Source: a virus
DNA: 42,572 bases
Virus record (IMG/VR): IMGVR_UViG_3300032132_000001
Coordinates: 1 to 42,572 of that record
Direction: 5' to 3' (one strand)
In this document: positions 5,417 through 37,382 of the stretch, piece after piece
How the letters are laid out: each line of letters begins with the position of its first letter
Position numbering within the stretch: the first letter of the stretch is position 1
Notes under the pieces: generated by a model
What the model was told of the DNA's origin: nothing
Database searches by the model: none
The model's input: only the letters and a program-made list of their open reading frames with translations
Position numbers and translations under genes: made by a program

Positions 5417-5433
5417 ATGGACCCCCACTTACC

Positions 5434-5446
5434 CAACGTGCCACGG
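5434..5446 (-). promoter_or_regulatory. Conserved intergenic 13-mer CCGTGGCACGTTG, copy 1 of 5
   Basis: Exact copies at 5434, 14306, 21086, 32685 and 37120. This copy starts 1 nt after a TAA. Confidence 0.8.
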
Positions 5447-5447
5447 G

Positions 5448-5843
5448 TTAGTAGGAATAGGTGAGAGTTTCTTTGATATTCTTCTCGCATTCCTCGATAT
5501 TGTTGATATCTCCGCAGTCATCGTCGTCTTCCATCAGGCGACCACCCTTGATGAAGAATTCGTATTCTTCGTGCATGCAACCCCCGCGATCATCTGGGTG
5601 CTCATAGACGATTTCTACACGTAGGACAGGGCCACGGGGGTCTTCACCTGCCGGATGCACTTCGTAATCGCAGCGCTCCGCATACCATCCGGAGTCACTT
5701 TTCCCAGTTTCGACCGCTAAATGTTGAAGCTGTTCCATCCTGGGATCGCCATCGTTAAGCAGCAGCTTCTTCTGGTATTCTAGGACGCCCAGCTTGCTAC
5801 GCGCTTCCTTGATCTGTTCCTCTAGTTCTTCCAGTTTGCTCAT
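5448..5843 (-). CDS. Hypothetical protein with N-terminal coiled coil
   Basis: ATGA overlap with the upstream gene. Confidence 0.7.
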   Translation of the reverse strand: MSKLEELEEQIKEARSKLGVLEYQKKLLLNDGDPRMEQLQHLAVETGKSDSGWYAERCDYEVHPAGEDPRGPVLRVEIVYEHPDDRGGCMHEEYEFFIKGGRLMEDDDDCGDINNIEECEKNIKETLTYSY

Positions 5844-6616
5844 TTCGCCTCTTCTAGCACACTATCGGTTAGAACGATATCATCTTCCACCATATCGCCA
5901 TTGGGGAGAGTGATAGTAACCTTGAGGTTGATTTCTGCAGTCATCTCTAGGTTCACATCGCCGTAGATGGAGTCATACTTGCGGAATTGATGGCACATCG
6001 TCTGTTTGATGCGGTCCACGCCTTTGACGAACTGGTCGTGGTAGTGGGTCTGTGGAACCTCGTTGATCTGCCTTCGAAGCTCGGGTCCGAAGTCAATGTC
6101 TGGGTCACCCAGGTCAATGTCAAGTTCAAGGTGGGGCCTGTGTCTATACCCTCCCCTCGGCTTCTCCTTACTGACTCCCATATAGACTTTCAAAGTCTGG
6201 CCGATAATCCCAATATAGGTATGGTCTTCAATCATACCACCTTCATCAGGGACATGCTTCTTATCGTAAGGCTTTACACCAAAGACCGGCATTGCCCAGC
6301 CCATCGCCTCGGCAACCTTGAAGAGTAGGTTCTTATTCAGATCCTTCCTTGCAGCTTCCTGCGAGATCCTGATCTTGCAACTGCGCAAGTGAATTTTTAC
6401 GCTCTTGAATTCTCGCTTACAGTATTGGCAGGTGCGCTCGTCCTTGCTGCGACGGTGAGCGCGGACGACCTCTAACTCTTCAGAGGTAAGCTCGTATGGG
6501 TTCTTGTGTTTGTACTCAGGGATCTGGAGATGGCCCTTGATCTCTTTATGGAGATCAAAGACCACACTGCGCATCTTGTGGATAAAGTCGGTGTCTGGAG
6601 TGTTCCTTTCAGCCAT
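5840..6616 (-). CDS. Hypothetical protein with C2HC zinc finger
   Basis: CQYCKREFKSVKIHLRSC; start is 6616 or 6631. Confidence 0.7.
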   Translation of the reverse strand: MAERNTPDTDFIHKMRSVVFDLHKEIKGHLQIPEYKHKNPYELTSEELEVVRAHRRSKDERTCQYCKREFKSVKIHLRSCKIRISQEAARKDLNKNLLFKVAEAMGWAMPVFGVKPYDKKHVPDEGGMIEDHTYIGIIGQTLKVYMGVSKEKPRGGYRHRPHLELDIDLGDPDIDFGPELRRQINEVPQTHYHDQFVKGVDRIKQTMCHQFRKYDSIYGDVNLEMTAEINLKVTITLPNGDMVEDDIVLTDSVLEEAK

Positions 6617-6618
6617 TT

Positions 6619-7749
6619 TTATTTCTTGCATTTGAGGCAGAGGTATTCTCTACCAGAGCGATCGACCACTGCTGTAATCTTGGGAATGACGTCGTTAGAG
6701 CGGATAACCATCACCCGATCTCCGATAGCGACGTCTAGCTGCTTAATATAGTCGAGGTTGTTGAGGGTGACTCGGGCGATTGTCGCGCCAGCGAGATTGA
6801 TAGGCTCGACTTCAGCTACCGGGCACATACGACCAGTAAGACCGGCCTGCCAGGTGATATCGTTGATCGTGGTGATCCCGCCCTCAGATTCGAACTTAAT
6901 AGCGAGCGCAGCCTTAGGCCGACCACCCACCATGCCAAGCTTCTTGTGAAGGGAGAGATCGTTACAGTCCACGACCAGACCGTCGATGAGATAGTCCAGC
7001 TTGTCACGCCGGTATTCCTCAAATCGATCCCACAGATCATCGGGTGTCCGCTTGTCGAAGAACCGTGCATAGGTCACGTGCTGGAGGCCGAGCTGTTGGA
7101 TCAGCTTGAACTCGTCCAGCTTCGTCTTCAGCCCAGGAACTACAGCCTGGAACCAGACGACCTTGAGATGTACGACGAGATCGTTGTCGCCCCTCTTGCC
7201 CTTCTTGTCCCTCGCCTTACCTGCTGCTGCGTTCCGGCAGTTCCGGTAGCCGAGAGGTACGAAGTGCTTGTTGAAGAGCGACTTCTCTAGCAGAATCTCA
7301 CCACGCAGTTCACCAGTGAATCTTGCATCTAGATCCTCCTTGATGTTCTGCATCTTGATGAAGTTGGGTGTGATATTCTCACCCTCGGCGCCGTTCCCTC
7401 GGGTGACGGCGTGGATGAGCTTTCCCTTCTTGTACGTTGCCACGATGGTGATCCCATCGAGCTTCTCGCTGAGGATGAGGTCACCCTTACCCTTGGCCCA
7501 CTTCAAGAAGTCAGCCTTCTCGTCGTGCTTCACCTTGGCAAGGGAACCGATAGTGCGCGAGTGCTTCTGCACGGGCCACACGGTGACCTGCACCGGGGCA
7601 CCTACGACCTTGAGAAAAGCGTTGGTGGGATCTAGCTTCTCTAGCTCGTCACGGAGTGTGTCGAACTCCGCGTCGTCCATTACGGGGCTGCCAGCATAGT
7701 ACGCATTGCTGGCGTCAGTCAGGGTCTTGACTAACGTTTTAATGTCCAC
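6619..7749 (-). CDS. ligA: NAD+-dependent DNA ligase, core only (Ia + adenylation + OB; no complete Zn finger, HhH or BRCT)
   Basis: AYY..P.MDDAEFD (domain Ia), SEKLDG (motif I), TRGNG.EGENIT, ELRGEI, NCRNAAAG, IDGLVV, ALAIKF, WQAGLTG..PVA, RSNDVIPKI. Ends CLKCKK-TAA at 376 aa. Confidence 0.92.
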   Translation of the reverse strand: MDIKTLVKTLTDASNAYYAGSPVMDDAEFDTLRDELEKLDPTNAFLKVVGAPVQVTVWPVQKHSRTIGSLAKVKHDEKADFLKWAKGKGDLILSEKLDGITIVATYKKGKLIHAVTRGNGAEGENITPNFIKMQNIKEDLDARFTGELRGEILLEKSLFNKHFVPLGYRNCRNAAAGKARDKKGKRGDNDLVVHLKVVWFQAVVPGLKTKLDEFKLIQQLGLQHVTYARFFDKRTPDDLWDRFEEYRRDKLDYLIDGLVVDCNDLSLHKKLGMVGGRPKAALAIKFESEGGITTINDITWQAGLTGRMCPVAEVEPINLAGATIARVTLNNLDYIKQLDVAIGDRVMVIRSNDVIPKITAVVDRSGREYLCLKCKK

Positions 7750-8452
7750 GTAGTTTCTCCTTCATCTTCGCAGAGTGATCCACGATCAGTTGTACGATTT
7801 CACCAACCCGATCTTGAATTTTAGCCAGCGGCAAAAAGACGGGCTTCATCGATGGAGTGTGGTGATTGTAGTATTGGTTTACTGGCTCGGCAGATACCTC
7901 TACCTGCTTTGCGGGGCGAGTTGCTATCTTGATCTCTAATTCGCTATAATAATGGTTCCCGTCCCACTCTTTCCGATTCGGACGTGCGCGGAACGTGGAT
8001 TTGAACATATCGCCTCCTGCGCCCCAACCTTTTCCTTTCAAGGCTTCCATCACAGCTTGGCGAGCAAGGGGGAGAGGTTTATGACCTTCATCCCATTCTT
8101 TCAGCCCAGCGGGCCGCTTGTGTGAAACAAGCACCTCTCCGCCTTCGGCGTACATCACCCCGTAGATCTTTTTGCCATCTTCTTCTAGCACTAGGCATCT
8201 AGACCAGTTGGATCCTCGGTTTCGTAGGATCGTAAAACCTGACTCGCGCAGCGTGTCGAAGATTCCACGTTTTATGGTGATCCCAGTAACTTCAGTGCCG
8301 AGGAACGCACAATTAAAAGTGCGCACCATGTGTACAAACACTTCTGGAGAGTTGACGAATTTGTTTACAGCCCAGTGGTCCTTGAACGGAAAGTTGACCG
8401 CAGTTAGAAACTGATCTGGATCGAACTTCGGATCCGAGAAGTAATCATGCAT
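7739..8452 (-). CDS. Hypothetical protein with N-terminal SDPxFDP motif
   Basis: MHDYFSDPKFDPDQFL; overlaps both neighbours by a few nt. Confidence 0.7.
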   Translation of the reverse strand: MHDYFSDPKFDPDQFLTAVNFPFKDHWAVNKFVNSPEVFVHMVRTFNCAFLGTEVTGITIKRGIFDTLRESGFTILRNRGSNWSRCLVLEEDGKKIYGVMYAEGGEVLVSHKRPAGLKEWDEGHKPLPLARQAVMEALKGKGWGAGGDMFKSTFRARPNRKEWDGNHYYSELEIKIATRPAKQVEVSAEPVNQYYNHHTPSMKPVFLPLAKIQDRVGEIVQLIVDHSAKMKEKLRGH

Positions 8453-8705
8453 CAGGTTTGCTTGCTATATGAAACTTCATTACAGGGACGATACCAGTCT
8501 CGTCACAAGCTGGACACCCTGTAGACACCACTCCATCGCAGTATTGGACGAGAAGCGCTGTATTCCCGCACTTCTCACAACCAAGCAGTACTGGATGCCA
8601 TTGATCGTGCTCACCTTGGGAGTGAGCACATTCGGGATCCTCACACGAGTTTACCCCTTTCTCCCTAATGTCCTCGTCAACGTCTTCTCTGTACCGTGGT
8701 TCCAT
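8445..8705 (-). CDS. Small Cys-rich (zinc-binding) protein
   Basis: CEDPEC, CEKCG, CPACDETG. Confidence 0.65.
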   Translation of the reverse strand: MEPRYREDVDEDIREKGVNSCEDPECAHSQGEHDQWHPVLLGCEKCGNTALLVQYCDGVVSTGCPACDETGIVPVMKFHIASKPDA

Positions 8706-9106
8706 TAGTCTCTCACGTTGATCCCGCTGCGTCGCAGGGCGTTTACCAACTCGCCTACGATTCGTTTGGTTATGCTGTTGTGCCTGTTGGGATCTGTGGA
8801 TCCCTTATGGCATTTATTGCACTCTCGTAGTCCTGACAACACCGAAGATCGCAACCGCTGTCGAGACAGCTGTTTGGCTGTCGCTTTCCATTCTTGATAC
8901 AAGCGGTTGATCGCCCAAGGGAGCGCGTAATTGCTCCCTTTGGCGTCATCCGGGAATGTAGCCATGATCTCTTCGAGTTTGTGCAGAGTCTCTTCATTAA
9001 AGGTACTCCACTCAAACTCGTCGTGATCTAGATATGGCCTAAGTTCCGAATCCGAGCCTGGGGTTGGGAGAGGACTCGGAGTTGGCTTGCCATCCGAGTG
9101 ATTCAT
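8705..9106 (-). CDS. Hypothetical protein (start uncertain; overlaps AAA 3' end)
   Basis: ORF fills the gap, has a TAATG junction at 8705 and contains CNKC. Confidence 0.5.
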   Translation of the reverse strand: MNHSDGKPTPSPLPTPGSDSELRPYLDHDEFEWSTFNEETLHKLEEIMATFPDDAKGSNYALPWAINRLYQEWKATAKQLSRQRLRSSVLSGLRECNKCHKGSTDPNRHNSITKRIVGELVNALRRSGINVRD

Positions 9107-10649
9107 CGCCCATGTATTCCTGAGACACCTGATCGAGTGCTTTGTGCGGATCCTCTCCAAGCTTTACCTTCACAGCCACATCTTTCAATGTAGAGGCGAT
9201 GTGGCTCCCTAACACAATGTCAGGGTTGAATGTGGTGCGCACAAGATCGTTGGCGTCGAACTGTTCAGTTAGATTGTAGCGGTCGAGATAGAACTGAACG
9301 ATGTCCAGCTTCAACTGACCTTCGGGAGGGCCAAACTCAATACACATCCCCAAGCGACCAGGGCGGAGGATTGCCCTGTCGAACCGCTCAGGATAGTTTG
9401 TAGTTGCGACGGTGATGACGTCGTATTCCTTATCTCCGTCCAGCACATCCAGCAGCAAGGAGATGAAACGAGGACTTTCACTATCCCAACCTAACCCATC
9501 ACGCCTGACCTGGATCCCGTCCATGTCTTCGCAAACGATGATGTTGGGGCCGATCTTCTCCAGCCACGGGTAAATCTGGGCGAGGAAGCTCGCGGGCAGA
9601 TTGCTCACAAAGAATACTGTCGCCTCGCCGGCCACATCCTTGACGAGCTGGGTGATAGAAGCTGTCTTTCCTCCGCCTGGGAGTCCGTACAAGATGAGAC
9701 CCATCTTGCGTTCTCCTTTGCTGAGCTTGTCCCAGTTCCTCACCACTTTCTTGATGTGGTCGAACCTCTGCTGCTTCTGCTCGTCCAAGAGCGCAGGCTT
9801 GTCGGGGATCCCTCGGATAGTAAAGGAGAGATTGCCGTGCGAATCCGCGTCCACCTTGGTGATCTTGTTCTTGAACAAGCAATGCTTGAAGTAGAGCTGT
9901 GAGAATTCGTCGATGATCTTGGTCATGTCGTTTTTGGTTGACGTGACCAGGTAATCGACCAATGATGCGCTAGGCGTGGAGCTTTCCTTCCCCTTCTCGG
10001 TTGGGATGCCGAGAAGGATGAACACATCTCCCGAATCAAGTCCTACTCTGTAGACTCTGGCTAACTTGATGTGCTTTACTTCATCCCCCTCTTTCCACGA
10101 GATGCTCTGGTCGCTAGACGCGGACCGCATTGGGCTGAACATGATCTTGCCCGATGGTGAGTGGAAGAACACGCCTTCAGACACCAAAGGCTCACCTGCT
10201 GTGCTGAGAAAGTGAGCCTTATCTGCGTCTGTCAACCAGGGTTCTATCTGGTTCTTGTTGTAGTCGCCTTTGAGCTTGAGATATTTGGAGAGGAGAGTCT
10301 TGACAGCGATACGTTTCTTGGAAGCTCGTTCGTACTTGAGCTTCTCCATGTGTTCTCTCTGAGCTTTTAATTCCCCCTTCATGGCTTTCATAAGGAAGGA
10401 AAGCCCAGCTTCGTAAAGGTTACCGAACTGAACGCCCATCACATCATAGAACTGATCGGGGGTCAAACCCCATTCAGCTAGTGAGTCGATGAGCTTTCGT
10501 TTTTCGGCTCGATTCAGGTCTTTTCCAAGCACGACACGGGCGCGGAAGGCGTCCATGACCTTCGAGCGCACCTCTTCTCTTTGGTCGAAATCCTCGTCAG
10601 CGATTTGCTGGAGTTGTTCTCTGAGCTTTTCTTTGGAATTTTCCGACAT
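9039..10649 (-). CDS. AAA+ ATPase (classic clade) with uncharacterised N-terminal region
   Basis: Walker A GLPGGGKT, Walker B IIVCEDMD, sensor TTN, second region of homology DRAILRPGRL, C-terminal LGF, GAGGAG RBS. Confidence 0.9.
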   Translation of the reverse strand: MSENSKEKLREQLQQIADEDFDQREEVRSKVMDAFRARVVLGKDLNRAEKRKLIDSLAEWGLTPDQFYDVMGVQFGNLYEAGLSFLMKAMKGELKAQREHMEKLKYERASKKRIAVKTLLSKYLKLKGDYNKNQIEPWLTDADKAHFLSTAGEPLVSEGVFFHSPSGKIMFSPMRSASSDQSISWKEGDEVKHIKLARVYRVGLDSGDVFILLGIPTEKGKESSTPSASLVDYLVTSTKNDMTKIIDEFSQLYFKHCLFKNKITKVDADSHGNLSFTIRGIPDKPALLDEQKQQRFDHIKKVVRNWDKLSKGERKMGLILYGLPGGGKTASITQLVKDVAGEATVFFVSNLPASFLAQIYPWLEKIGPNIIVCEDMDGIQVRRDGLGWDSESPRFISLLLDVLDGDKEYDVITVATTNYPERFDRAILRPGRLGMCIEFGPPEGQLKLDIVQFYLDRYNLTEQFDANDLVRTTFNPDIVLGSHIASTLKDVAVKVKLGEDPHKALDQVSQEYMGDESLGWQANSESSPNPRLGFGT

Positions 10650-10731
10650 CTCGTCTCCTCGACGGCTTCTGAAGCCGGTCAGATACAGGCGTGTCGGACC
10701 ACCTCGCAGATTCTACTAATTTCATAGTGAT

Positions 10732-11313: not shown

Positions 11314-11314
11314 A

Positions 11315-11983
11315 TTACACCACCAATCCGATATTGGCTAGCACCTCGTCTAGGTTGTTGATTCTAAACGGGTCTAGTTGATATTGCTTGTCCAGGGACA
11401 GGTTGCCATTGCTGTCCATCTTCCAGTCACCCTTGATCGGCTTGAGAGTCTTGAGATCGAGCATGAACCTGATCTCACCATAGCAGTACTCCCACTGCAC
11501 CCCGTTATCTGCGCAAGCGAACTTCCCTTCAATGACCCCATAGGGTGCATCGTATTCGGGGTCGCTCAAGATCTCGTGGTCACCTAGTTTGGTCAGCTTG
11601 TACGAGATGCGCTTACACTTGGGCTTCTCAACCTTCTTGCACTTGCGATGTTCTTTACATTCCTTGCGGATGCTGTCAACATAGTCTTGGATCTGCTTTT
11701 TACTCCAGTTGTATTTGCTGACCTCCTTCTCTTTCCGCACAGCATAGTCGCAGTGCTTAGGTGTGCAACCTTTATGGTTACACTTAGTTTCTCTAGTGCG
11801 CACCAGACACGGCCTATATCCACAAGTCCTGTGCCTGCAGAATTCTGACTTCCCCTTGAGCACTGCAAACCCCAAGAACTTGGCGGTAAACAACATGCCA
11901 CTGGAGTGTTCGTGTTGGAAGAACTCCCCGTTCCCAGCTTGGAGACGGGGATGGTTCCTCACTTTAGTCCGACCTTTGGCCAT
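11315..11983 (-). CDS. Cys/His-rich hypothetical protein, CxHxxCGY paralogue family
   Basis: CRHRTCGY...EILSDPEYD...FMLDLK, matching 32702-33205 and 36124-36567. Confidence 0.7.
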   Translation of the reverse strand: MAKGRTKVRNHPRLQAGNGEFFQHEHSSGMLFTAKFLGFAVLKGKSEFCRHRTCGYRPCLVRTRETKCNHKGCTPKHCDYAVRKEKEVSKYNWSKKQIQDYVDSIRKECKEHRKCKKVEKPKCKRISYKLTKLGDHEILSDPEYDAPYGVIEGKFACADNGVQWEYCYGEIRFMLDLKTLKPIKGDWKMDSNGNLSLDKQYQLDPFRINNLDEVLANIGLVV

Positions 11984-13506: not shown

Positions 13507-14282
13507 TAGTCGCTTTTCCAGTGTTGGTTGATCTCGTGAATCTGCCGCAGATGCAGCGTGATCCCCGGATAACTCTTGATTTTCTTCACACAGAACGGGC
13601 AGCGTACCCCGCTATCCTTAGGGATAGACGAGGATTGCCTGATATAGGCAGCTAGTTCCTTTGAGTGGAAGTCGTTAAGCGCCCTGAAAAGGTGCGCCAA
13701 TAGCTTGACTTTCTCTTGGAGCCGCATTCTGTTGATCGCCGCTTTGCGGACATTCATGGTGTCCTTTGGATGGTGGGCGACCTTTCGAATAAACTCATGG
13801 TCAGCAGGCAGGTCAGTGAGGGCAATAATAGCAGCGCTCTCAGGGATAGGCCATTGCTTGCTTTTTGTGTACTCCCACATCTGGACGACAAAATCTGGAT
13901 CCATCTTGGTGGGATTGCTTGCTAGCCCATCCCAAGCTGCGTGCATTCTATCCCCATCTAGTGTAGACAACCAACCTTCCACCATTGGTTGGTCAACATA
14001 CTTGGCGATAGTCTTTACTGCCCCCGTATCCATCCTATGAGCTTGCTCTGCCAACTTCCGAATCAGTGTTGGGTTGTTGTGCTTCTCAAGAGCTTCCCGA
14101 ATATCCTTAGCGTACTGGCTCCAGAAAATGTTGATTGCCAGTTGTTCATCGTACTCGAACAACAACAATGGGGGCAAGGAGACGATCAACTTACTAAGAA
14201 CATCACGATCAGCTTTATGGATCGCAACATAGGTCAGAAAAAGCTCTGGGTCGAAATCGGGATCGGATAGTACATTGGACAT
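13506..14282 (-). CDS. Hypothetical helical protein with N-terminal SDPxFDP motif and C-terminal C2H2 zinc finger; probable paralogue of 4203-4994
   Basis: VLSDPDFDP; CPFCVKKIKSYPGITLHLRQIH; GGAG RBS. Confidence 0.75.
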   Translation of the reverse strand: MSNVLSDPDFDPELFLTYVAIHKADRDVLSKLIVSLPPLLLFEYDEQLAINIFWSQYAKDIREALEKHNNPTLIRKLAEQAHRMDTGAVKTIAKYVDQPMVEGWLSTLDGDRMHAAWDGLASNPTKMDPDFVVQMWEYTKSKQWPIPESAAIIALTDLPADHEFIRKVAHHPKDTMNVRKAAINRMRLQEKVKLLAHLFRALNDFHSKELAAYIRQSSSIPKDSGVRCPFCVKKIKSYPGITLHLRQIHEINQHWKSD

Positions 14283-14295: not shown

Positions 14296-14327
14296 GGTGG
14301 GGACCCAACGTGCCACGGGTCCCCACC
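14296..14327 (-). promoter_or_regulatory. 11-bp perfect hairpin whose loop carries the conserved 13-mer (copy 2)
   Basis: Plus strand GGTGGGGACCC-AACGTGCCAC-GGGTCCCCACC. Confidence 0.8.
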
Positions 14328-17578: not shown

Positions 17579-17604
17579 TCGTTCTTCAGATACCTGCAGG
17601 GGGC

Positions 17605-18984: not shown

Positions 18985-19030
18985 CGTTCCTCCGCTTCTC
19001 AGATACCTGCGGCAGAGATTATTTGTACCG

Positions 19031-21068: not shown

Positions 21069-21104
21069 TGGGAGCCGTGGCGACTCAACGTGCCACGGCT
21101 CCCA
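21069..21104 (-). promoter_or_regulatory. 13-bp hairpin containing the conserved 13-mer (copy 3, 21086-21098)
   Basis: TGGGAGCCGTGGC/GCCACGGCTCCCA stem. A second hairpin (TATCCCC/GGGGATA) follows at about 21047-21067. Confidence 0.75.
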
Positions 21105-25370: not shown

Positions 25371-26303
25371 TTACCCCTTGAAGAATTCCTCGGCGTCGAT
25401 GTACTGGAATCCGAGGCGCTTGGCGAAGGTCTTGTCTGTGGTCTGGTCACCTACGTAGATGCACTTACCTGGATTGAGCTTGTGCTTCTCGATCAGGAGT
25501 ACACCGAGACCAGATTGAGGCTTGCGACAGTAGCAGCGAGGCGGGACGTTGTGATCACAGAAGTGGTACTCGATCTGCACCCCAAGCTGGCGGTTGGTCT
25601 CCTCAAAACATGCCACGGCATCCTCACGAGTCAACTGACCCCGTGCCACACCGGACTGATTTGAAACACCAAGCATCAGCCGATCACCGACGAGCTTCTC
25701 GATCACCTTACGACCAGGCAGGAGCTTCACCTCGCTCGGCTTGGTGGGGAACTTGAGCTTCTCGTGGAGCGAGGTGCGAAGCGTCTCATCATAGTCAAAG
25801 ATGACAGCTTCAGTCTTGTACCCTAGGGAGCGACGGACGAACTTGACCTTCTCGATCTTGTCGAACCCCTCACTCTTATCGGGCTTCTCGAATTCCTTCT
25901 TGTACTTGAAGATCACGGCGATGGGGAAGGTGTTAGGACACTTGATTCCCTTCAGATCTTCTGGTGCACAGAAGATGCGCCCGTGCTTCTTGTACATGCG
26001 GTGCAGCGCGTTAATCTGCGCGTCTTCCGCTGAGGTCGCGACCCAGATGCAGCGGATCGGGATGCCCGCTTTCCGGCAGGCGTCGATGAACGGCTTCCGC
26101 ACCTCTGCCGTGGGGAAGAGGTTGTCGAGTACGACGGATTCGCCAGCTTTCAGCGCCCCGTCGAGGTGAGGGAGGAGTCCGACGATCTTGCCGCCGATCT
26201 TATCCCGGTTGAGGTGGACATACCCCTTGTCGATGAGTTCTTGGGAGTGGGAGGTCTTGCCGCTGGCGGGAAGACCGATCACCATCACTGCCTCTTGGGT
26301 CAT
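25371..26303 (-). CDS. Polynucleotide kinase/3'-phosphatase-like bifunctional enzyme (P-loop kinase + HAD IIIA)
   Basis: GLPASGKT, NRD, VLDN, R.PF in the kinase half; FDYDETL, VSNQSG, CRKP..G, YVGD...D in the HAD half. Confidence 0.85.
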   Translation of the reverse strand: MTQEAVMVIGLPASGKTSHSQELIDKGYVHLNRDKIGGKIVGLLPHLDGALKAGESVVLDNLFPTAEVRKPFIDACRKAGIPIRCIWVATSAEDAQINALHRMYKKHGRIFCAPEDLKGIKCPNTFPIAVIFKYKKEFEKPDKSEGFDKIEKVKFVRRSLGYKTEAVIFDYDETLRTSLHEKLKFPTKPSEVKLLPGRKVIEKLVGDRLMLGVSNQSGVARGQLTREDAVACFEETNRQLGVQIEYHFCDHNVPPRCYCRKPQSGLGVLLIEKHKLNPGKCIYVGDQTTDKTFAKRLGFQYIDAEEFFKG

Positions 26304-26665: not shown

Positions 26666-27654
26666 TTGCTTGCTGCTTCCTGTTCTTCCATCTTCCTGTT
26701 ATGAGTTTCCATCGCTTTTAGGCCGTCTTCGGTGGGTACGACCTCGCCGCTGAAGTTATCCACCATCCAGTCAATCATCCGATGGAAAAGCTCTTCCCCG
26801 CCTTCCCCGATAGGCAACTTCACAGTCGCCTTCACCATATTCCTTCTCGGCTTCACCATCCGGCGGTTCGTTTCCTCTTTGCCCCAAACGGTGAATAGAA
26901 GTTTAGACTGCCTGGTGATGCGGATGTGGTCCTTCCCGCTCTGGGCGATTTGGAACGTTCTTTCTGGGGTGCCGTATCTAGAGATCTGCTCAGAGATTTT
27001 CACCAGAGACTCTGCTCTCTCATCGAAGCCTAGCTCTTTCTTCTGGTCATCCACCTTTAACGTTACGCCCGCTCTACGCTGTTCTATCCACCACTTCTTG
27101 AAATCCTTGCGGATCTGGACAACAGCCTGCACTACCTTGGCCTTCTTGGGTGCGATCTTCTGTTCACCGGAAATCTGCTTGAAATCCTTCTTATGCCATT
27201 CTTTGCGCCAGAAGTCAATCGTATCTTCCAGAGTCCAGTCGTCGTCTACAGCATGATGGAGGCTGAGATCCCATTCAAGGGTGTTGTGGCCCTTCCAGTG
27301 TCGGCTGATTTCGAAGCACAGACCTCTACCTACATCGATGAATCCGTAGATTTCCTTGGACTGCATCTTCTTGTGCCAGGTTTCCTCTAACACCTGCGAT
27401 AGATTCTTCCCTGTCTTGGAATGGATGTGGTGAGCGTTACGCTCTAGGAACTTCGGCCTAGCAGACATCAAACCCATAAAGAATTGCGGGTCGAAGGTGA
27501 GTCGCTTCCACACGCCAGGATTCCTGGCGAAGAACATGAAGTGGTCTGCTAGCGCAATGGGGTCGAACTCAGGGTCGGCGATGACTTCATCTAGGTCACC
27601 GCTATCTGCGGCTTTCTCTCGCCTTTTGTCTATATCAGGATCGATTTGGGACAT
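26662..27654 (-). CDS. Hypothetical protein with ADPxFDP motif near N-terminus
   Basis: EVIADPEFDPIAL; 330 aa. Confidence 0.75.
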   Translation of the reverse strand: MSQIDPDIDKRREKAADSGDLDEVIADPEFDPIALADHFMFFARNPGVWKRLTFDPQFFMGLMSARPKFLERNAHHIHSKTGKNLSQVLEETWHKKMQSKEIYGFIDVGRGLCFEISRHWKGHNTLEWDLSLHHAVDDDWTLEDTIDFWRKEWHKKDFKQISGEQKIAPKKAKVVQAVVQIRKDFKKWWIEQRRAGVTLKVDDQKKELGFDERAESLVKISEQISRYGTPERTFQIAQSGKDHIRITRQSKLLFTVWGKEETNRRMVKPRRNMVKATVKLPIGEGGEELFHRMIDWMVDNFSGEVVPTEDGLKAMETHNRKMEEQEAASK

Positions 27655-32352: not shown

Positions 32353-32674
32353 CGTCTTGCCTTAGATGCTCAATAGGAATACCACATGGGGTGCAATCTG
32401 GACAAGGACCGTTTCCTTCCCAATGTCCTATGCGTCCACCGCCAGCAGATTGTGAGATACGAACAGAGCGAGTTCCCCCACACGTGTCACAATCACTCGG
32501 ACCCGGATCTCTTCTCTTCTCTTTCAACTCCTCCCCACACCAGGGGCAGAATCGGAAGGGTGTACCATCATACTGCCACTTGAATCCGCTGCGAGCGGAT
32601 TGTAATTGGATGGGAGCATTGAGCTTAGGAAGGGTCTCCTTCCAATCACTACAAGTACAATCTACTTCAGCCAT
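32303..32674 (-). CDS. Cys-rich zinc-binding protein
   Basis: CTC, FRFCPWCG, CDTCGG, CPDC; GGGAGG RBS directly after 13-mer copy 4. Confidence 0.65.
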   Translation of the reverse strand: MAEVDCTCSDWKETLPKLNAPIQLQSARSGFKWQYDGTPFRFCPWCGEELKEKRRDPGPSDCDTCGGTRSVRISQSAGGGRIGHWEGNGPCPDCTPCGIPIEHLRQDDEPSTRSGAKEADHAT

Positions 32675-32684
32675 CTTACCCTCC

Positions 32685-32697
32685 CAACGTGCCACGG
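32685..32697 (-). promoter_or_regulatory. Conserved 13-mer, copy 4
   Basis: Lies between a TAG (32702) and the RBS of the next gene. Confidence 0.8.
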
Positions 32698-32701
32698 CAC
32701 G

Positions 32702-33205
32702 CTAAAGTTCGGTCCCAACCGCTTTTCTCAGTTCTTCGTAGTTCCTGCAGAGTTTAGGGTCGAGTTGCTTCAACCCCTGCGCAGTCCGACGTACTCCGGC
32801 TTTTTCCTTGTTCTTCGGTCGGCCCCCTTTATAGTACGGCTTCCAGGGGCCAGAGATGAAGTCGTCGCTTTTCATGTCCAACATGTAGTGTCTTGACATG
32901 ACTTGGTTTGGATCCCAGCCGGCGATGTCTCCACCGATGAAGATCTCCAGCTTGAGATACGCGAAGATTCTATCCACCTCGGGATCGGCAACAATCTCGG
33001 CGGTCATCAGTGGGAAGATCTCCATCTGACATTGGACCAGGCTGTCGTCTACCCACCGGTTTGGTGCGACCGACTTTCCTTTGTATCCACAGCCTTTGTG
33101 CCTGCACTGTATGTCCTGGGGCTCCAGCTTATAGTGAAATCCCCGGAGGGTTGCATCTAGGATTAGGGAGTAGGTACTTGCTGTGAGGAGCTTTTTGTCT
33201 GGCAT
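32702..33205 (-). CDS. Hypothetical protein, CxHxxCGY paralogue family
   Basis: CRHKGCGY...FPLMTAEIVADPEVDRIF...YMLDM. Confidence 0.7.
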   Translation of the reverse strand: MPDKKLLTASTYSLILDATLRGFHYKLEPQDIQCRHKGCGYKGKSVAPNRWVDDSLVQCQMEIFPLMTAEIVADPEVDRIFAYLKLEIFIGGDIAGWDPNQVMSRHYMLDMKSDDFISGPWKPYYKGGRPKNKEKAGVRRTAQGLKQLDPKLCRNYEELRKAVGTEL

Positions 33206-33211
33206 AGGCTA

Positions 33212-34084
33212 TCACATCCAGTTGTGTTCAGGGGTCATCTCCGTCAGGTCAGCTTCGAAGAACTCTAGATCCTCGACGTTCCCGTCGATTGACTTGGGGT
33301 CAGACATCTCGATACCCCATAGGTCTAGAAAGTCCATCTTGTTGTACTTGACCAGGGTGGGTGCGTCGATGACCAGCTTGCCAGGGTATTTGTGATGGGT
33401 GTGGAACCAGGTCCTATTGATCGGTTCTCCCACTGGGCGTCCGTTCTGACCATAGTATACATCACCATAGGCGATAGCAACCACGGCTCCAGCATTATTG
33501 CCCAACTTGACCAAGTTGTCTCGCAGATACTGCATATAGTTGCCGTCTTCTGCGATCATGATGATCGAGTTTCCGACGATATCAACCACCTGGTATCCTT
33601 TCTGGTTCAGTTTGGGACCCTTAGCCAATTGGTGGAGATCTTCCAACCGTACCATGACAGTGTTGTCTACTTTCAGCTTGTTAGGGAACAAGCCAGGGAA
33701 GTTGATAGTCACCACATAGCATTGGATCGCAGGCTGAACGTTGGCCTCATCTGCCATCCTGTTCTTAGCCCGATCGATACCCTCTGCCACTTTGTCATAG
33801 CCGATTTCATGTAGGATATCCGCTGGCCCACCAGGCCAGACAAATCCACCCTTCCATGGGTAGGTGGGGAAACGTGTCAGCCCCCAACCCCAACTGGAAG
33901 AACAAGAAGCCGTGAAAGACCTCTCGAAGATGACGTACGGTTGGGACCAGTGTTCTCCATCGGGGATGAGAGCAATGATCTTACTCTCATCCCCGAAAAT
34001 CGACTTATTTTCGAAGTCAGAGTGCGGATGCCCCAGAGAACCTTCTAGAATCTCACCCGCAGTCTCGAAGTTGAATTCACCCAT
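33212..34084 (-). CDS. Hypothetical protein
   Basis: TAATG junction at 34084. Confidence 0.7.
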   Translation of the reverse strand: MGEFNFETAGEILEGSLGHPHSDFENKSIFGDESKIIALIPDGEHWSQPYVIFERSFTASCSSSWGWGLTRFPTYPWKGGFVWPGGPADILHEIGYDKVAEGIDRAKNRMADEANVQPAIQCYVVTINFPGLFPNKLKVDNTVMVRLEDLHQLAKGPKLNQKGYQVVDIVGNSIIMIAEDGNYMQYLRDNLVKLGNNAGAVVAIAYGDVYYGQNGRPVGEPINRTWFHTHHKYPGKLVIDAPTLVKYNKMDFLDLWGIEMSDPKSIDGNVEDLEFFEADLTEMTPEHNWM

Positions 34085-34938
34085 TACACGTAGTATTCCT
34101 CTGGTAGGGGATCGCCAGTCCTCAGTTCCTGCCACCCCTTGAAGTGAGTGTCACGCCAGATGATGAGCTTGTCGCTCTTCCACGCCTTCGCCCATTGAGC
34201 ACGGTACTTGCGCTTCCAAGCGCGGTAGAGAGGAACGTCCACATAGTGGTCTACGATCTTGTCCCCGAAAGCGTGGGTCTTCAGCGTGTTGATCACGTTC
34301 TGACGCACACCTTGATACAAGCAGGTCAGACCAACACATACCTCGTCCACGCCGACCGCAATTAGATCACGGGCTAGCGTTTCTACCGCCCGATCCGACA
34401 AGAGAGGGATGGAGGGGGAGACGTTGGCGACCACGAACACGCCCATCTCCTTGAGACGCCAGATAGCCTGGAGTCTCTCACCGTTCGTCACCTTCATCCG
34501 CTCGACGTGCTGACGGTCCTCTTCCAGGTACGGAGAGATCGTGAAGTGCACCCGACCACGAGGGAGGAGAGCAATGAGGTCCGTGTCTTCCACGACGCTC
34601 GGGGAGCGGGTGAAGATCCCGACCTTGGTGATCTCGTCCTTCTTGGCGAGAGATTGCAAGATCGTACGGGTGATGCGAGCCTTGCGCTCGACAGGCTGGT
34701 ATGGGTCACAGTCAGTGCCGATGGCAATCTTACCGGCAATGTCTGCGGAGAGGATTCGGTCAGCGACGTTTTCCCTCTCGTGGACGAACGTACCCCAATC
34801 CATTGGTGCGATGCTGCGCACGTAGCAGTACGAGCAGCCGTAGGTACAGCCGACGTACGGATTACAGCTGTGGTCGTATGCGGTGAATCCCGTCTCCCGG
34901 AAGAGAGCAGCGTGGTTTACAACCGATTTGATTTCCAT
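34084..34938 (-). CDS. Radical SAM protein, SplB-like superfamily
   Basis: NPYVGCTYGCSYCY, IGTDCDPYQPVE, IFTRSP..D, ERL. Confidence 0.88.
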   Translation of the reverse strand: MEIKSVVNHAALFRETGFTAYDHSCNPYVGCTYGCSYCYVRSIAPMDWGTFVHERENVADRILSADIAGKIAIGTDCDPYQPVERKARITRTILQSLAKKDEITKVGIFTRSPSVVEDTDLIALLPRGRVHFTISPYLEEDRQHVERMKVTNGERLQAIWRLKEMGVFVVANVSPSIPLLSDRAVETLARDLIAVGVDEVCVGLTCLYQGVRQNVINTLKTHAFGDKIVDHYVDVPLYRAWKRKYRAQWAKAWKSDKLIIWRDTHFKGWQELRTGDPLPEEYYV

Positions 34939-35717
34939 TATTCGCCTCCTGCGGCAGTCGTCTTCAGCGTCTTGGTCGTCTCACCATGGTAGAGCCCTTG
35001 CAGCTCCACTACACAGCACCCTTCAGGTTCTACTTCTTGATTGACCTCTTCCACCATGTCAGAGTAGATCGACTCTGCCGCCGCTAGAGTTGTAGCGATC
35101 TTGACCTTCTGATCGAACATCTCACCGTACTCTTCCCATTCGGTGCGGACGATGGCATACATGTCCGGGTGGACTGTCGCCGGATCGCGCCTCTCTGGGT
35201 GATCCGGGTTGAAATCTGCCTGGTCGTACTTCTTGTAGTAGCTGTGTTCCCAATCTGGCCTAGGAACAGGGAGGGACCCAGCACCTTGAGCTTCGATAAG
35301 AAGTTCTTCGAAATCGTTGAATTTCGAATGTTCAGGATCAGACCATTGCTCAGGCACCTTTCCTCCCATCACCCGCTCAATGAGATGCCTTGCATTTGGG
35401 ACGATGGGATAGTCGTGGTTGTTAGAGGCGTAGTTTGTCCTCTCAGTTCCGAGATGCTTGAACCCGTTGTAGTGACCAGACAACTTGACAGCTGTCTTGG
35501 TTTTCCCATCTACGATCTCATGGACCACGAAGTTGCTCATGAGATCGTTCGTCTCTGCGAGAGTCATCAACACTCGCATCATGGACAACTTGTTTTTGAA
35601 TGTCCACATTCGGCAGGGCTGAGCGCTGCCGCCTCTACTCTCTGATGGTTTCTTGATGAGTAGCACGACGCTACCATCGACCATCTCACCAGCAATATCA
35701 CGCCAAGGAGCGGGCAT
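34938..35717 (-). CDS. Hypothetical protein
   Basis: GGAGG RBS; 259 aa. Confidence 0.75.
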   Translation of the reverse strand: MPAPWRDIAGEMVDGSVVLLIKKPSESRGGSAQPCRMWTFKNKLSMMRVLMTLAETNDLMSNFVVHEIVDGKTKTAVKLSGHYNGFKHLGTERTNYASNNHDYPIVPNARHLIERVMGGKVPEQWSDPEHSKFNDFEELLIEAQGAGSLPVPRPDWEHSYYKKYDQADFNPDHPERRDPATVHPDMYAIVRTEWEEYGEMFDQKVKIATTLAAAESIYSDMVEEVNQEVEPEGCCVVELQGLYHGETTKTLKTTAAGGE

Positions 35718-35725
35718 TATGCCTC

Positions 35726-36127
35726 CTAGGTCCAGTGGAGGCTGTGGCCTCCAAGCTTTTCGATGCGATTGAAGATTGGATCAAGACGCAGAGCGTCCTT
35801 CTTGGTACCCTCATACATCGCCGTATCCCGACCGATGATGAGGTCTACCAGCTTCTGATCGAATTCAGGGATGACGAAAGAAGCGCCGAAATTGTAGACG
35901 ATCCCGCCGTCATACTTCCGCAGCACCTTCTCGGGCTTACCCCGGTCGTCCCCATAGAGGTTGATCTTACCAAGCCAACACTCACCATGGTCTTTGACCA
36001 TTGCCATGACGATCTGGCGGGACGCGTCATTGATGTCAGGGTCCGCTTCTGGCAGACAGCCGTTGAATCGAAGGTGGGGGAGCATGAGATTGGTCAACCT
36101 CCCCACCGCTTGGGATGTATAATTCAT
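35726..36127 (-). CDS. Hypothetical protein
   Basis: ATGA junction. Confidence 0.7.
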   Translation of the reverse strand: MNYTSQAVGRLTNLMLPHLRFNGCLPEADPDINDASRQIVMAMVKDHGECWLGKINLYGDDRGKPEKVLRKYDGGIVYNFGASFVIPEFDQKLVDLIIGRDTAMYEGTKKDALRLDPIFNRIEKLGGHSLHWT

Positions 36128-36567
36128 AGAGCCCTCTTGAGTGCTTCCATCATGATGTCGTAGTTTGGATATTGCGACAGATCACGGGGAACCAAAATAC
36201 CGGTGTACCCTTCTTCCAAAAGCCGACTTTTAGCTAGGCCGTAGAATTTAGATTCTGCTAGGTCGAACATGTACGTGGTGCCAGTGAATTCGTCATCTTC
36301 ATCGTAATGTTCACCTCTTGCGATAAGCATTTCTAGGAAGATTCGTCCGACGTTTGGGTCTGCCAGCTCAGATTCTGTTAGGACTGGGAAGAATTGTAGA
36401 GTACAGTCTACTTTGGGATGCACTTTAGTCCACGGACCAGTCTGCTTTTCATAACCACAACAGTGGTGCATACACTTTCCGGTTGGTGAAACGAAACCGT
36501 AGAAAGATCCGGTTTCTGCTCTCTGGATAGCTTTCCTAAACGGAAGATCTAGGATTATTTGTTCCAT
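36124..36567 (-). CDS. Hypothetical protein, CxHxxCGY paralogue family
   Basis: CMHHCCGY...FPVLTESELADPNVGRIF...YMFDL. Confidence 0.7.
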   Translation of the reverse strand: MEQIILDLPFRKAIQRAETGSFYGFVSPTGKCMHHCCGYEKQTGPWTKVHPKVDCTLQFFPVLTESELADPNVGRIFLEMLIARGEHYDEDDEFTGTTYMFDLAESKFYGLAKSRLLEEGYTGILVPRDLSQYPNYDIMMEALKRAL

Positions 36568-36583
36568 CTGTCACTCCGGACAT

Positions 36584-36614
36584 ACAAATGGCCCGGCAGG
36601 GAAGCCGGGCCATT
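36584..36614 (-). terminator. Terminator-like 11-bp hairpin
   Basis: AATGGCCCGGC/GCCGGGCCATT immediately after two small ORFs; weak U-tract. Confidence 0.5.
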
Positions 36615-36617
36615 ATG

Positions 36618-36749
36618 TTAGCAGGATTGGACGAGGGTAATCGCCAACATCACCAAGAATCCAGCAGAGAGGCCGAGGAAGGCGCTCAAAGAGAAGTCTA
36701 GGATATGACGTTGGGGATCTTCATCTCGATGTTTCTTTCGGTGTCTCAT
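36618..36749 (-). CDS. Small membrane peptide (43 aa)
   Basis: MRHRKKHRDEDPQRHILDFSLSAFLGLSAGFLVMLAITLVQSC; TAATG coupling. Confidence 0.5.
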   Translation of the reverse strand: MRHRKKHRDEDPQRHILDFSLSAFLGLSAGFLVMLAITLVQSC

Positions 36750-36847
36750 TAGTCGTCAATTACTATATGGCACACCAGGCACGCTACCAGTCCTACCAAA
36801 ATGTCGTCGGTGATGAACCAAAACGCAATTCCGACTAGGATTGACAT
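36749..36847 (-). CDS. Small hydrophobic peptide (32 aa)
   Basis: MSILVGIAFWFITDDILVGLVACLVCHIVIDD; AGGAG RBS. Confidence 0.5.
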   Translation of the reverse strand: MSILVGIAFWFITDDILVGLVACLVCHIVIDD

Positions 36848-36864
36848 TACTGCTCCTGGGTGGG

Positions 36865-36941
36865 TGGTAGACCGGGTGGGAATCGAACCCACGACCTCCA
36901 CTTTATAAGAATGGCGCTCTTACCGACTGAGCTACCGGTCC
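36865..36941 (-). tRNA. tRNA-Ile(UAU)
   Basis: GGACCGG/CCGGTCT acceptor, anticodon arm CCATT-CTTATAA-AGTGG, GTTCGATTC, A73, CCA. Confidence 0.9.
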
Positions 36942-37014
36942 AAGTTGGGAGCGGTAGCTCCCAAATTAGCTCGGTATTCGTATTCGTGGATGTGGGTGGG
37001 TCATGGTTTATGTT

Positions 37015-37091
37015 TGGTGGGCCGTGCAGGACTCGAACCTGCGACCAACTGGTTATGAGCCAGCCGCTCTAACCAACTGAGCTAACGGCCC
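37015..37091 (-). tRNA. tRNA with CAU anticodon, most like tRNA-Ile2 (lysidine type); elongator Met not excluded
   Basis: GGGCCGT/ACGGCCC acceptor with paired G1-C72 (not an initiator), CTCATAA loop, overall resemblance to ileX-type tRNAs, CCA. Confidence 0.88.
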
Positions 37092-37119
37092 GCTCCCTTT
37101 AGATACGCGGGGTCACACC

Positions 37120-37132
37120 CAACGTGCCACGG
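37120..37132 (-). promoter_or_regulatory. Conserved 13-mer, copy 5 (21 bp identical to copy 1 context)
   Basis: ACCCAACGTGCCACGGGTTAG at 37117-37137 and 5431-5451; about 28 nt upstream of the tRNA pair. Confidence 0.8.
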
Positions 37133-37133
37133 G

Positions 37134-37382
37134 TTAGCCGTGTTTCTTGTATTCCTCTTGCCAGAGTCGAGCACCATCAGGATGTTCGATGGCCATCATT
37201 GTGATGTCATCGGGAGGATCGCCCTTGAAGACTTCATCTACGTCGCAGTCTCGACCGTTGAACTCGGCCCAGACCGTGCATTCGTATTCGTCTCCATCTT
37301 CGTTCTTTCCCGCCACCCTGAAGGTGATCCCATCTTGATCAGCTTTCTCGCTCTTGATGGAATCAATCGTTGGTTTGCTCAT
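37134..37382 (-). CDS. Hypothetical acidic protein
   Basis: Start MSKPT 1 nt after the upstream stop. Confidence 0.6.
   Translation of the reverse strand: MSKPTIDSIKSEKADQDGITFRVAGKNEDGDEYECTVWAEFNGRDCDVDEVFKGDPPDDITMMAIEHPDGARLWQEEYKKHG

Follow-up and report, generated by a model that had tools for sequence, protein, structure and literature searches.

The window analyzed here comprises the first 42.6 kb (42,572 nt) of a circularly assembled 395-kb jumbo myophage that is uncultured. It raises the question of why one short sequence recurs directly behind stop codons, always in the same orientation, and what reads it. For uncultured giant phages such a question carries some weight: what is annotated in them is almost entirely protein, and how they programme transcription is obscure. 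No close relative of this phage was found in IMG/VR, in a phage collection or in a set of 5.8 billion proteins.

A repeated, mostly intergenic sequence confined to one gene block

A preliminary description of the window had reported five exact, co-oriented copies of a 13-mer, each shortly downstream of a stop codon. All five copies of CCGTGGCACGTTG were recovered, on the minus strand and at the distances from the stop codon given in Table 1. Their recurrence is non-random: with up to two mismatches allowed, there were 8 matches versus 0.92 expected, and 8 matches were reached in none of 100 shuffles. Since the minus strand also carries the genes of the window, the copies point in the direction of transcription. 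In four of them the match continues to ...GTTGGG, and 21 bp, CTAACCCGTGGCACGTTGGGT, are common to copies 1 and 5. The structural contexts described earlier for copies 2 to 5 were correct as well (Table 1).

Table 1. Copies of the repeated element and neighbouring features in the window. Distances from stop codons are to the exact 13-mer.
Feature	Position	Strand	Exact 13-mer	Nt from upstream stop	Context
Copy 1	5433..5446	-	5434-5446	1 (TAA)	CCGTGGCACGTTGG, CACG subclass; next ORF start 4 nt (GTG) or 16 nt (ATG) downstream
Copy 2	14305..14318	-	14306-14318	17 (TAG of Cas2-like gene)	Loop of 12-bp hairpin (about 14296-14327); GGAG and ATG 22 nt downstream
Copy 3	21085..21098	-	21086-21098	12	Ends GTTGA; 5' half forms the first arm of a hairpin of 12-13 bp (about 21070-21103); upstream of radical-SAM gene
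Copy 4	32684..32697	-	32685-32697	4 (TAG)	3' GG merges into GGGAGGG; adjoins GGAGGG-N5-ATG; ATG 9 nt past motif
Copy 5	37119..37132	-	37120-37132	1 (TAA)	27 nt before tRNA-Met(CAT) and tRNA-Ile(TAT)
tRNA-Met(CAT) and tRNA-Ile(TAT)	36865..37091	-			Pair downstream of copy 5
Weaker copy CAGTGGCATGTTGT	11890..11903	-			Hairpin 5' of motif; the motif's ATG, opening a 193-codon frame, may be a start codon
Weakest copy CCGTGGCATGTTTT	25605..25618	-			Within 319-aa ORF; possibly an internal site or a match by chance
Copy GGGTGGCATGTTGG	41255..41268	-			5' part of 408-aa radical-SAM-type ORF; in-frame reading G-M-L
Different, second signal GTATCTAA (motif C)	37099..37106	-			12 nt after copy 5, 7 nt before tRNA-Met 5' end

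A scan of the full genome, a check proposed in that description, enlarged the unit. The repeat is a degenerate 14-base element, cCGTGnCAYGTTGG (motif A), with about 33 copies, and the five exact 13-mers are joined in the window by weaker copies at 11890, 25605 and 41255. At a PWM score of at least 16, 33 sites fell on the minus strand versus 1 on the plus strand (binomial p = 4e-9), and 32 of these 33 lay inside one co-directional minus-strand block, which runs from 89.4 kb through 0 to 377 kb. Motif A is therefore specific to this block. The proposed genome-wide control signal is indeed non-random, strand-specific and mostly intergenic, but its extent is limited to these 109 kb, where the minus strand is the coding strand. 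No site lies upstream of a plus-strand gene, and the other minus-strand block, at 140-180 kb, is without sites. At least 21 of the 33 sites were found at gene boundaries, versus a non-coding share of the DNA of at most 20% (p = 6e-8), and about 8 copies lie within coding sequence. Among 10-11-mers, motif A is the most over-represented genome-wide, second to the tRNA T-arm. Its subclasses are contiguous by position, with the CACG form running from 37 kb through 0 to 390 kb and the CATG form occupying 41-89 kb. The block itself holds accessory genes (PARP, ligases, a PspA module and radical-SAM enzymes), ORFans and 13 tRNA genes.

Three separable intergenic signals occur in this one genome: motif A in one block, GTATCTrA and CAAAnATA. 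GTATCTrA stands exactly 5-6 nt before ATGs that lack a Shine-Dalgarno sequence in 14 of 53 cases; therefore, start-codon-proximal initiation seems usual in this phage. GTATCTrA is spread genome-wide in non-structural regions, and CAAAnATA lies upstream of late-type genes.

Base composition and geometry of motif A

Column counts were taken from 29 sites picked by the pattern GTG-n-CAYGTTG, in which GTG, CA and GTTG are constant by construction; mismatch-tolerant scans returned the same sites with the same conservation. Only the single column that separates TG from the hexamer varies freely (G 20, C 4, T 3, A 2 in the 29 sites), while the third hexamer base is a pyrimidine (Y). A G follows the hexamer in 29/29 sites, where the pattern fixes it, and a second G follows in 22/29. 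Every site that scores at least 16, those recovered with mismatches included, contains the hexamer CAYGTT, whose second base is A and whose sixth is T. As in an extended -10 element, TG stands exactly one base 5' of the hexamer, and this A and T would occupy -11 and -7. Three hairpin variants (CCGTCCCATGTTGG) are without the TG. The 29-site column counts revealed no conserved -35 element upstream. The hexamer is not TATAAT-like, CATGTT agreeing with TATAAT at 3/6 positions and CACGTT at 2/6. Hairpins accompany roughly half of the motif A sites. Because they use different registers from copy to copy, it is the sequence and not the fold that is conserved, as the preliminary description had held.

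A candidate promoter class without a -35 box

The layout TGn + xAxxxT + GGG fits a -35-independent promoter of the sigma-70 family. Of the readings considered, we find it most likely, at about an even chance, that motif A is an undescribed promoter class and not an operator or a processing site; this reading was absent from the preliminary description. The copies are observed, as are their strand, block restriction, intergenic bias and geometry, whereas promoter function, start site and the identity of the reading sigma are inferred. Motif A would form the centre of a promoter specific to one class of genes and independent of a -35 box, and its reader would be the host RNA polymerase together with the sigma factor of the phage or with an alternative sigma of the host. 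Taken as an extended -10 element, cCG-TG-n-CAYGTT-GG(G/A) would place TG at -15/-14, the unconstrained base at -13 and the hexamer's C, A and final T at -12, -11 and -7. The hexamer would be followed by a G-rich discriminator such as sigma region 1.2 contacts; this region is known to read GGGA placed right after a -10 element (PMC3526302). Transcription would start about 5 nt past the 14-mer, and the roughly 30 sites would restart it every 2-5 kb along the 109-kb one-directional block. Because the intergenic spacers are tiny, the promoter would often be fused to the terminal hairpin of the preceding gene, and the G-rich 3' end of the motif would double as a Shine-Dalgarno sequence for read-through transcripts.

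Several observations support this promoter reading, among them the placement of GTATCTrA, the absence of a phage RNA polymerase gene in the searches detailed below and the single sigma factor of the phage. Consensus sigma-70 promoters were not enriched in the motif A block (1 versus 4.4 expected; 10 versus 12.5 expected). The first motif A site of the block, at 89441, comes after a strong terminator at 89710-89678. A start 6-8 nt after the hexamer would suit most copies, and the one predicted at 89441 coincides with the A of the ATG, but other copies conflict with it. The low agreement of CAYGTT with TATAAT (2-3 of 6 positions) and the G and T fixed in the fourth and fifth hexamer positions (-9/-8), which are atypical of a -10 element, count against a promoter, as do the copies within coding sequence and the strong hairpin directly 3' of the copy at 395176. 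The copy at 55047 stops 1 nt short of the tRNA-Leu(GAG) 5' end, so that initiation 7 nt past the hexamer would lie within the tRNA. At 46393 and 75933 translation of the next gene probably begins at the motif's own ATG, and about seven copies have a well-placed GGAGG upstream of the predicted start, leaving leaders of 0-5 nt; these points again count against a promoter.

The phage encodes exactly one sigma-70-family factor, which is oddly built: it has regions 1.2, 2 and 4, and most of region 3 is absent. Its -10-reading helix is FSTYATWWIKQTIRK. Counted in an alignment to primary sigma, it carries Arg at the position of sigma-70 T440, a residue that we take to help read -12, and Y and S where sigma-70 has H455 and E458. 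Region 3 normally reads the TG. Since most of this region is absent and Y and S replace H455 and E458, reading of the TG by the phage sigma is uncertain. If the phage sigma does read motif A, it would offer a test case of a minimal sigma specifying a -35-less promoter with a non-TATAAT hexamer, and it would define a regulon of the accessory genes named above and the 13 tRNAs.

Alternative readings of motif A

Motif A might instead act at the RNA level, as the site of an endoribonuclease or RNA-binding protein, of phage or host, that punctuates a polycistronic transcript. Its role would be to separate cistrons, or to serve translation of the next gene via re-initiation or short-leader mRNAs. 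We regard this as unlikely, even though the motif is found on the transcribed strand only, between stop and start codons and also between tRNAs, 1 nt before the 5' end of one tRNA and 5 nt after the 3' end of another. It often adjoins GGAGG-N5-9-ATG or holds the start ATG, several copies lie in hairpin loops, and a Cas2/VapD-like gene adjoins copy 2. The intergenic variation (C/T at positions 2 and 9, any base at 6) also fits a mini stem C2:G10, G3:Y9, U4:A8 with a GnC loop. However, a 3-bp stem is unstable alone, and the single-stranded part varies, with the whole motif in the loop at 14305 but no more than its ATGTT at 83214, 85548 and 86587. An Rfam search gave no match, and no nuclease is tied to motif A. 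Copies in coding regions would moreover cut their own mRNAs, the TGn/A/T/GGG geometry would go unexplained, and the block would still be without recognisable promoters.

One specific non-promoter form, a punctuation element read as a single strand and consisting of this mini hairpin followed by UUGG, seems quite improbable to us. It would be recognised in RNA or in the non-template DNA strand, where a hypothetical phage factor would process, pause or re-load the expression machinery. If this were true, operons would be punctuated at about 30 cistron boundaries of the 109-kb early block, a mode undescribed for lytic jumbo phages; more generally, failing a promoter role, motif A would represent a novel type of cistron punctuation. 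Whether promoter or punctuation, motif A marks transcription-unit boundaries, which is useful in annotation. The antitermination, RNA-processing and recombination-cassette roles suggested in the preliminary description are conceivable but gained no positive support.

There is a small chance that motif A is a stoperator-like or other asymmetric DNA site, bound by a phage protein that acts as a roadblock repressor or an activator, with the block as one regulon. An asymmetric 13-14-bp site in about 30 copies, in one orientation relative to transcription and in short intergenic spaces, is what has been described for the stoperators of Cluster A mycobacteriophages (PMC6550527, PMC9283540), and restriction to one block would suit the silencing or activation of one temporal class. 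Against this, no other transcription unit carries motif A, and this applies to the minus-strand block at 140-180 kb as well. A tyrosine integrase (PF00589) was not found in a search that detected its positive controls, there is no sign of a temperate lifestyle, and no phage repressor is assigned to motif A. The block would also still need promoters, and the consensus type is not enriched.

A slighter chance attaches to a promoter for a cryptic phage-encoded RNA polymerase that starts at the conserved GG, as in the T7-type TATA/GGGAGA. Every transcript would then carry a GGAGG ribosome site or a 2-3-nt tRNA leader, which would resolve the conflicts of the sigma model at tRNA-Leu (55047) and with the Shine-Dalgarno sequences; the conserved sequence does extend as far as GG(G/A)(G). 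For several ORFs, 700 to >2600 aa long, no matching family was found, and the search with PF00940 gave no match but was run without a positive control. However, these unassigned large ORFs lie mostly among structural genes. No T7-type, two-barrel or multisubunit RNA polymerase gene was found in the phage, DxDGD occurs in no large ORF, and Pfam and PHROGs searches of the ORFs of at least 650 aa returned no polymerase. The phage carries a sigma factor, and therefore use of the host polymerase is implied.

A footprint of recombination or mobility, either short homology that shuffles cassettes or nicking or homing sites, is very improbable: the contiguous CACG and CATG subclasses suggest local copying, the 21 bp common to copies 1 and 5 include the stop codon and the block is ORFan-rich, but 14 bp is short for homologous exchange, flanking homology ends at 16-21 bp and recombination would be secondary to an expression function, as with the PeSLs considered below.

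Comparison with known systems

The preliminary description had likened the repeat to the stoperators of phage L5. Cluster A stoperators (L5 gp71 family) resemble motif A as asymmetric intergenic sites of about 13 bp in one orientation. The analogy breaks down over distribution and lifestyle: stoperators are spread over the whole genome and both arms of a temperate phage and serve an immunity repressor, whereas motif A is confined to one block, does not cover all transcription units in both directions and occurs in a phage with no PF00589 integrase.

An ops/RfaH-type antitermination site was rejected on the lack of any match to a NusG/RfaH paralogue (PF02357) in the phage; a host factor is possible. 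Sigma-54 (-24/-12) arrays share with motif A a -24 half-site, TGGCAC/TGGCAT, in 20/29 of the regex-selected sites, and a position before accessory genes. In the other 9/29 of these sites, the GG that is invariant in sigma-54 promoters is replaced by GC, GT or GA (TGCCAT, TGTCAT, TGACAT). There is no TTGC/GC element 10 nt downstream, and TTGG follows after 1 nt instead of 5, so this class was rejected too.

The PeSL cassettes of T4-type phages (PMC2839356, PMC4122927) come closer. PeSLs unite a promoter with a stem-loop and have been proposed as drivers of shuffling (PMC4122927), and like motif A they are intergenic motifs repeated through a part of a large myovirus genome that is rich in ORFans and whose genes run one way; the frequent fusion with stem-loops and the local sequence subfamilies of motif A are also PeSL-like. 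PeSL promoters, however, combine near-consensus -35/-10 sigma-70 elements with a defined stem-loop, whereas motif A has no -35, a non-consensus hexamer and hairpins that are inconsistent or absent, which places it outside this class.

The extended -10 promoters read by the primary sigma of Thermus (PMC3526302) share with motif A the TGn, the A at position 2 and the T at position 6 of the hexamer, the G-rich sequence after it and the lack of a -35, and both lie upstream of genes and co-oriented with them. They differ in the hexamer itself, which is TATAAT-like in the extended -10 promoters and CAYGTT, with an invariant G/T at -9/-8, in motif A.

Strand bias and distribution of the motif

The five exact 13-mers of the preliminary description were recovered at its positions, all on the minus strand and therefore co-oriented with transcription, since the genes of the window are also on this strand. 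Copies 1 to 5 lie 1, 17, 12, 4 and 1 nt after stop codons, and their hairpin, ribosome-site and tRNA contexts agreed with the earlier account. With up to two mismatches, the window contained 8 matches against 0.92 expected, a number reached by no shuffle. Genome-wide, allowing up to one mismatch gave 11 matches to the 13-mer, none of them on the plus strand, and 0 to the reversed-pattern control. The minus strand carried 29 occurrences of the pattern GTGnCAYGTTG, the plus strand a single one. For a 14-column weight matrix, the corresponding numbers were 33 and 1 at a score of at least 16, with a clean gap above noise (35 and 3 sites at score 12), and the strand bias was significant (p = 4e-9). 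The resulting consensus is cCGTGnCAYGTTGG followed by G or A; no sequence is conserved upstream of it, so there is no -35 box. The tRNA T-arm excepted, this motif (motif A) is the most over-represented 10-11-mer of the genome. The shorter core CAYGTTGG without GTGn added mostly antisense-coding noise.

Gene blocks occupy both strands of this genome. With the single exception of 174293, within a gene, all minus-strand sites fell in one block of accessory, ORFan and tRNA genes running downwards from 89.4 kb, across the origin, to ~377 kb, and none of the plus-strand genes had the motif upstream. The control signal proposed earlier is thus strand-specific and biased to intergenic DNA as expected, but its supposed genome-wide spread gives way to one minus-strand block. 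Two subclasses, CACGTTG (7 copies, see table) and CATGTTG (at 41-89 kb), are each positionally contiguous.

Non-coding DNA makes up at most 20% of the block, yet at least 21 of the 33 sites lie at the boundary of a gene or tRNA (p = 6e-8); about eight are truly intracoding. A frequent full spacer runs from a stop codon through 0-5 nt to the motif, then to GGAGG and an ATG 4-9 nt past the motif. Among the coding copies, including the one plus-strand site, 7 of 9 are in the frame reading (R/S/G)-G-M-L. This frame is the least costly of the three because the others encode P-W-H-V or V-A-C-W; such a preference is expected for a nucleic-acid signal overlying coding sequence. Roughly half of the intergenic sites involve the motif in a hairpin. 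Because these hairpins use different registers, it is the sequence and not the fold that is conserved, as the preliminary description had maintained.

Coordinates of motif copies and other features of the genome
Feature	Position (strand)	Remarks
Motif copy 1	5433 (-)	CACGTTG
Motif copy 2	14305 (-)	CACGTTG; inside hairpin loop
Motif copy 3	21085 (-)	CACGTTG; 5' arm of hairpin
Motif copy 4	32684 (-)	CACGTTG
Motif copy 5	37119 (-)	CACGTTG; CCGTG part is 3' arm of upstream hairpin; 27 nt ahead of tRNA-Met
Motif copy	55047 (-)	CCGTG part is 3' arm of upstream hairpin; 3' end 1 nt from 5' end of tRNA-Leu(GAG)
Motif copies	59014, 80007 (-)	CCGTG part is 3' arm of upstream hairpin
Motif copies	74443, 87545 (-)	inside hairpin loop
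Motif copy	81820 (-)	begins 5 nt past 3' end of CUA tRNA
Motif copy	84229 (-)	hairpin upstream
Motif copy	390483 (-)	CACGTTG
Motif copy	395176 (-)	CACGTTG; hairpin adjoining downstream
sGTATCT(A/G)A in window	1819-1826, 3598-3605, 10679-10686, 17586-17593, 18999-19006, 37099-37106 (-)
Gene downstream of copy 2	13509-14282 (-)	opens with MSNVLSDPDFDPELF
CUA (amber-reading) tRNAs	81839-81914 (-), 290758-290830 (+)
Terminator, 15-bp stem	89678-89710	after the 119-aa gene; then box TTTCTATAGA
119-aa gene heading the block	89736-90095 (-)	visibly GC-rich, unlike its surroundings
tmRNA, phage-borne	172239-172624 (-)	tag GETNVLSLDAFRAPARIAA
Large terminase	245643-249056 (+)	locus L019; split by intein with LAGLIDADG homing endonuclease
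895-aa protein	265478-268165 (+)	locus L021; major-vault-protein shoulder and repeat domains (Pfam E = 8e-25)
Sigma-70-family protein	304216-304923 (+)	locus L010; 235 aa

A candidate class of promoters

Over 34 kb of the block, consensus -35/-10 promoters were as rare as chance predicts or rarer, so another signal must start transcription there. From geometry and context alone, we judge the chances that the motif is a class-specific promoter to be even. Its bases would correspond one by one to those of an extended -10 promoter needing no -35 box, with TG at -15/-14, the sole freely variable column at -13, and a hexamer CAYGTT offering A at -11, T at -7 and, at the weakly read -10, the tolerated Y. 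GG(G/A) would then occupy the place of the GGGA discriminator element, which is recognised by sigma region 1.2 (PMC3526302). Transcription would start ~5 nt past the 14-mer; this predicts 0-5-nt leaders in about seven genes, and the start predicted at 89441 coincides exactly with the A of ATG. The site at 89441 is the first of the block and follows a strong intrinsic terminator (89710-89678). The density of ~30 sites per 109 kb is typical of promoters in the early or accessory regions of large phages, and motif A is specific to the accessory and tRNA block.

The motif would be read by the phage sigma or by a host alternative sigma. Exactly one sigma-70-family protein is encoded; it has regions 1.2, 2 and 4 and almost no region 3, its region 4.2 recognition helix is conventional-looking, and among PDB entries it is most similar to primary sigma and RpoS. 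Residues were assigned by eye, counting along the printed PDB-match alignments. The -10-reading helix, FSTYATWWIKQTIRK, retains the aromatic residues and Q437, and carries Arg in place of T440 and Lys in place of R441. Tyr and Ser stand at the positions of H455 and E458, the TG readers of sigma-70. Since changes at Q437 and T440 move the -12 specificity of sigma-70 from T to C, Arg at the T440 position would suit a hexamer starting with C.

Several other identities were rejected. Sigma-70 consensus promoters are not enriched in the block, with TTGACA-N-yAnnnT sites few and scattered. For sigma-54, the spacing is wrong and GG is not invariant, the likeness to TGGCAC being superficial. A MotA-box-like activator site with a fixed-distance -10 would need a consistent TAnnnT or GTATCT downstream, which was not found (distances of 1, 12, 17 and 23 nt). 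A start-codon context is true of some CATG copies only, the ACG copies continuing into stop codons, and a search for known RNA families gave tRNAs only.

Competing explanations

Five points count against a promoter. The hexamer is far from TATAAT, a start 7 nt past it would truncate tRNA-Leu at 55047, the ATG of the motif is very probably the start codon itself at 46393 and 75933, a well-placed GGAGG would be excluded from transcripts starting at the motif, and a strong hairpin immediately follows the 395176 copy. Because of these points, three rivals stay alive. An RNA-level punctuation signal would suit the strand and position of the motif, and wobble pairing would accommodate the variation at its positions 2 and 9, but the structural presentation is inconsistent and no nuclease is linked to the motif, making this reading unlikely. 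We consider a stoperator-like DNA site rather improbable: the motif matches the description of such sites (PMC6550527), in line with the analogy to phage L5 drawn earlier, while the block restriction and the absent lysogeny genes fail their defining features. Slightly less probable still is a promoter of a cryptic phage polymerase starting at GG, which would resolve the tRNA and ribosome-site conflicts; none was found in the genome, neither a T7-type polymerase nor beta or beta' domains, and the DxDGD motif is absent from all large ORFs. The genome search also found no NusG paralogue and no tyrosine integrase. A recombination role, proposed as a secondary one for PeSL cassettes (PMC4122927), would be at most secondary here and is very improbable, even though local copying is suggested by the contiguity of the subclasses and by the 21 bp that copies 1 and 5 share.

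Other intergenic signals

There appear to be three or more classes of signal in this genome. Independently of motif A, sGTATCT(A/G)A occurs in 53 copies genome-wide, co-oriented with genes on both strands throughout the genome outside the structural block at 205-262 kb. Of the 53 copies, 14 sit exactly 5-6 nt ahead of an SD-less ATG, among them the ATGs of a Rossmann-fold gene and of the gene for DNA polymerase III alpha, and the signal also lies 7-10 nt upstream of three tRNAs. It has the look of a start-codon-proximal promoter or of an initiation signal for leaderless-type mRNAs; given this placement before SD-less starts, short leaders would not be out of place in the phage. The third word is CAAAnATA(G), a marker of late-type genes on the plus strand. 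As CAAA[ACT]ATA(G) it is enriched upstream of them at 180-340 kb (52 plus-strand and 23 minus-strand copies), possibly as a late-promoter-like element; it recalls the T4 late promoter, TATAAATA.

The low-scoring sites 83214, 85548 and 86587 (CCGTCCCATGTTGGGACGG) belong to a separate 38-nt intergenic repeat family with 6-7 copies at L098:4620-10472 (genome ~83.2-89.0 kb), built of a GC-rich hairpin, GCCCGnCCC-loop-GGGnCGGG, and then TTAGCCTGTTGGAA. A related set ends in TAGTTGACA. The tRNA and small-ORF spacers of L096 and L097 (~43.8-68.2 kb) are full of degenerate GGYRCGGY or GGTRAGG repeats, e.g. ggtacggctcg...ggtgcggtgagg. The box TTTCTATAGA recurs after the hairpin that follows the 395176 copy. 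The SDPxFDP N-terminal peptide of the preliminary description appears again in several spacer-proximal ORFs, such as those near 27635 and 8445.

The phage and its relatives

The window covers bases 1-42572 of an IMG/VR virus record of 395,473 bases, with a GC content of 50.6%; a 127-base overlap between the ends of the record shows the assembly to be circular. The phage, a myovirus, encodes a tail sheath, a baseplate spike and an intein-bearing large terminase, together with DNA polymerase III alpha subunit, ribonucleotide reductase, a vault-protein-like gene, a tmRNA and 41 tRNAs, two with a CUA anticodon. We saw no sign of TAG recoding, the long ORFs being intact under the standard code. The LAGLIDADG intein is likewise present in many distant jumbo-phage relatives; major-vault-protein domains are unusual for a phage. 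Isolated phages are only distantly related (sheath identity no higher than 43%, across part of the protein), and the best relatives of the terminase in a set of 5.8 billion proteins reach ~44% identity. Searches with a 442-aa neighbour gene, the sigma, the terminase and the sheath gave no relative above ~44% identity, and an ESM Atlas search with a 1019-aa orphan protein matched nothing. As a clue to the host, the ribonucleotide reductase gene was uninformative, matching short MAG contigs at 37% identity.

Comparison with known systems

A text search of the literature for the motif returned unrelated primers and sequences only. In IMG/VR, the exact motif gave 66 single chance matches and no contig with several copies; five further jumbo contigs (309-394 kb) showed no enrichment of it, and G003, a distant 369-kb relative, had no analogous long over-represented word. 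The motif is undescribed in the searchable literature. Its consensus is new, as possibly is the sigma that reads it, and we regard the finding as real and useful. Functionally, the motif's nearest counterparts are extended -10/GGGA promoters and the composite cassettes of T4-type phages, which combine promoter and terminator.
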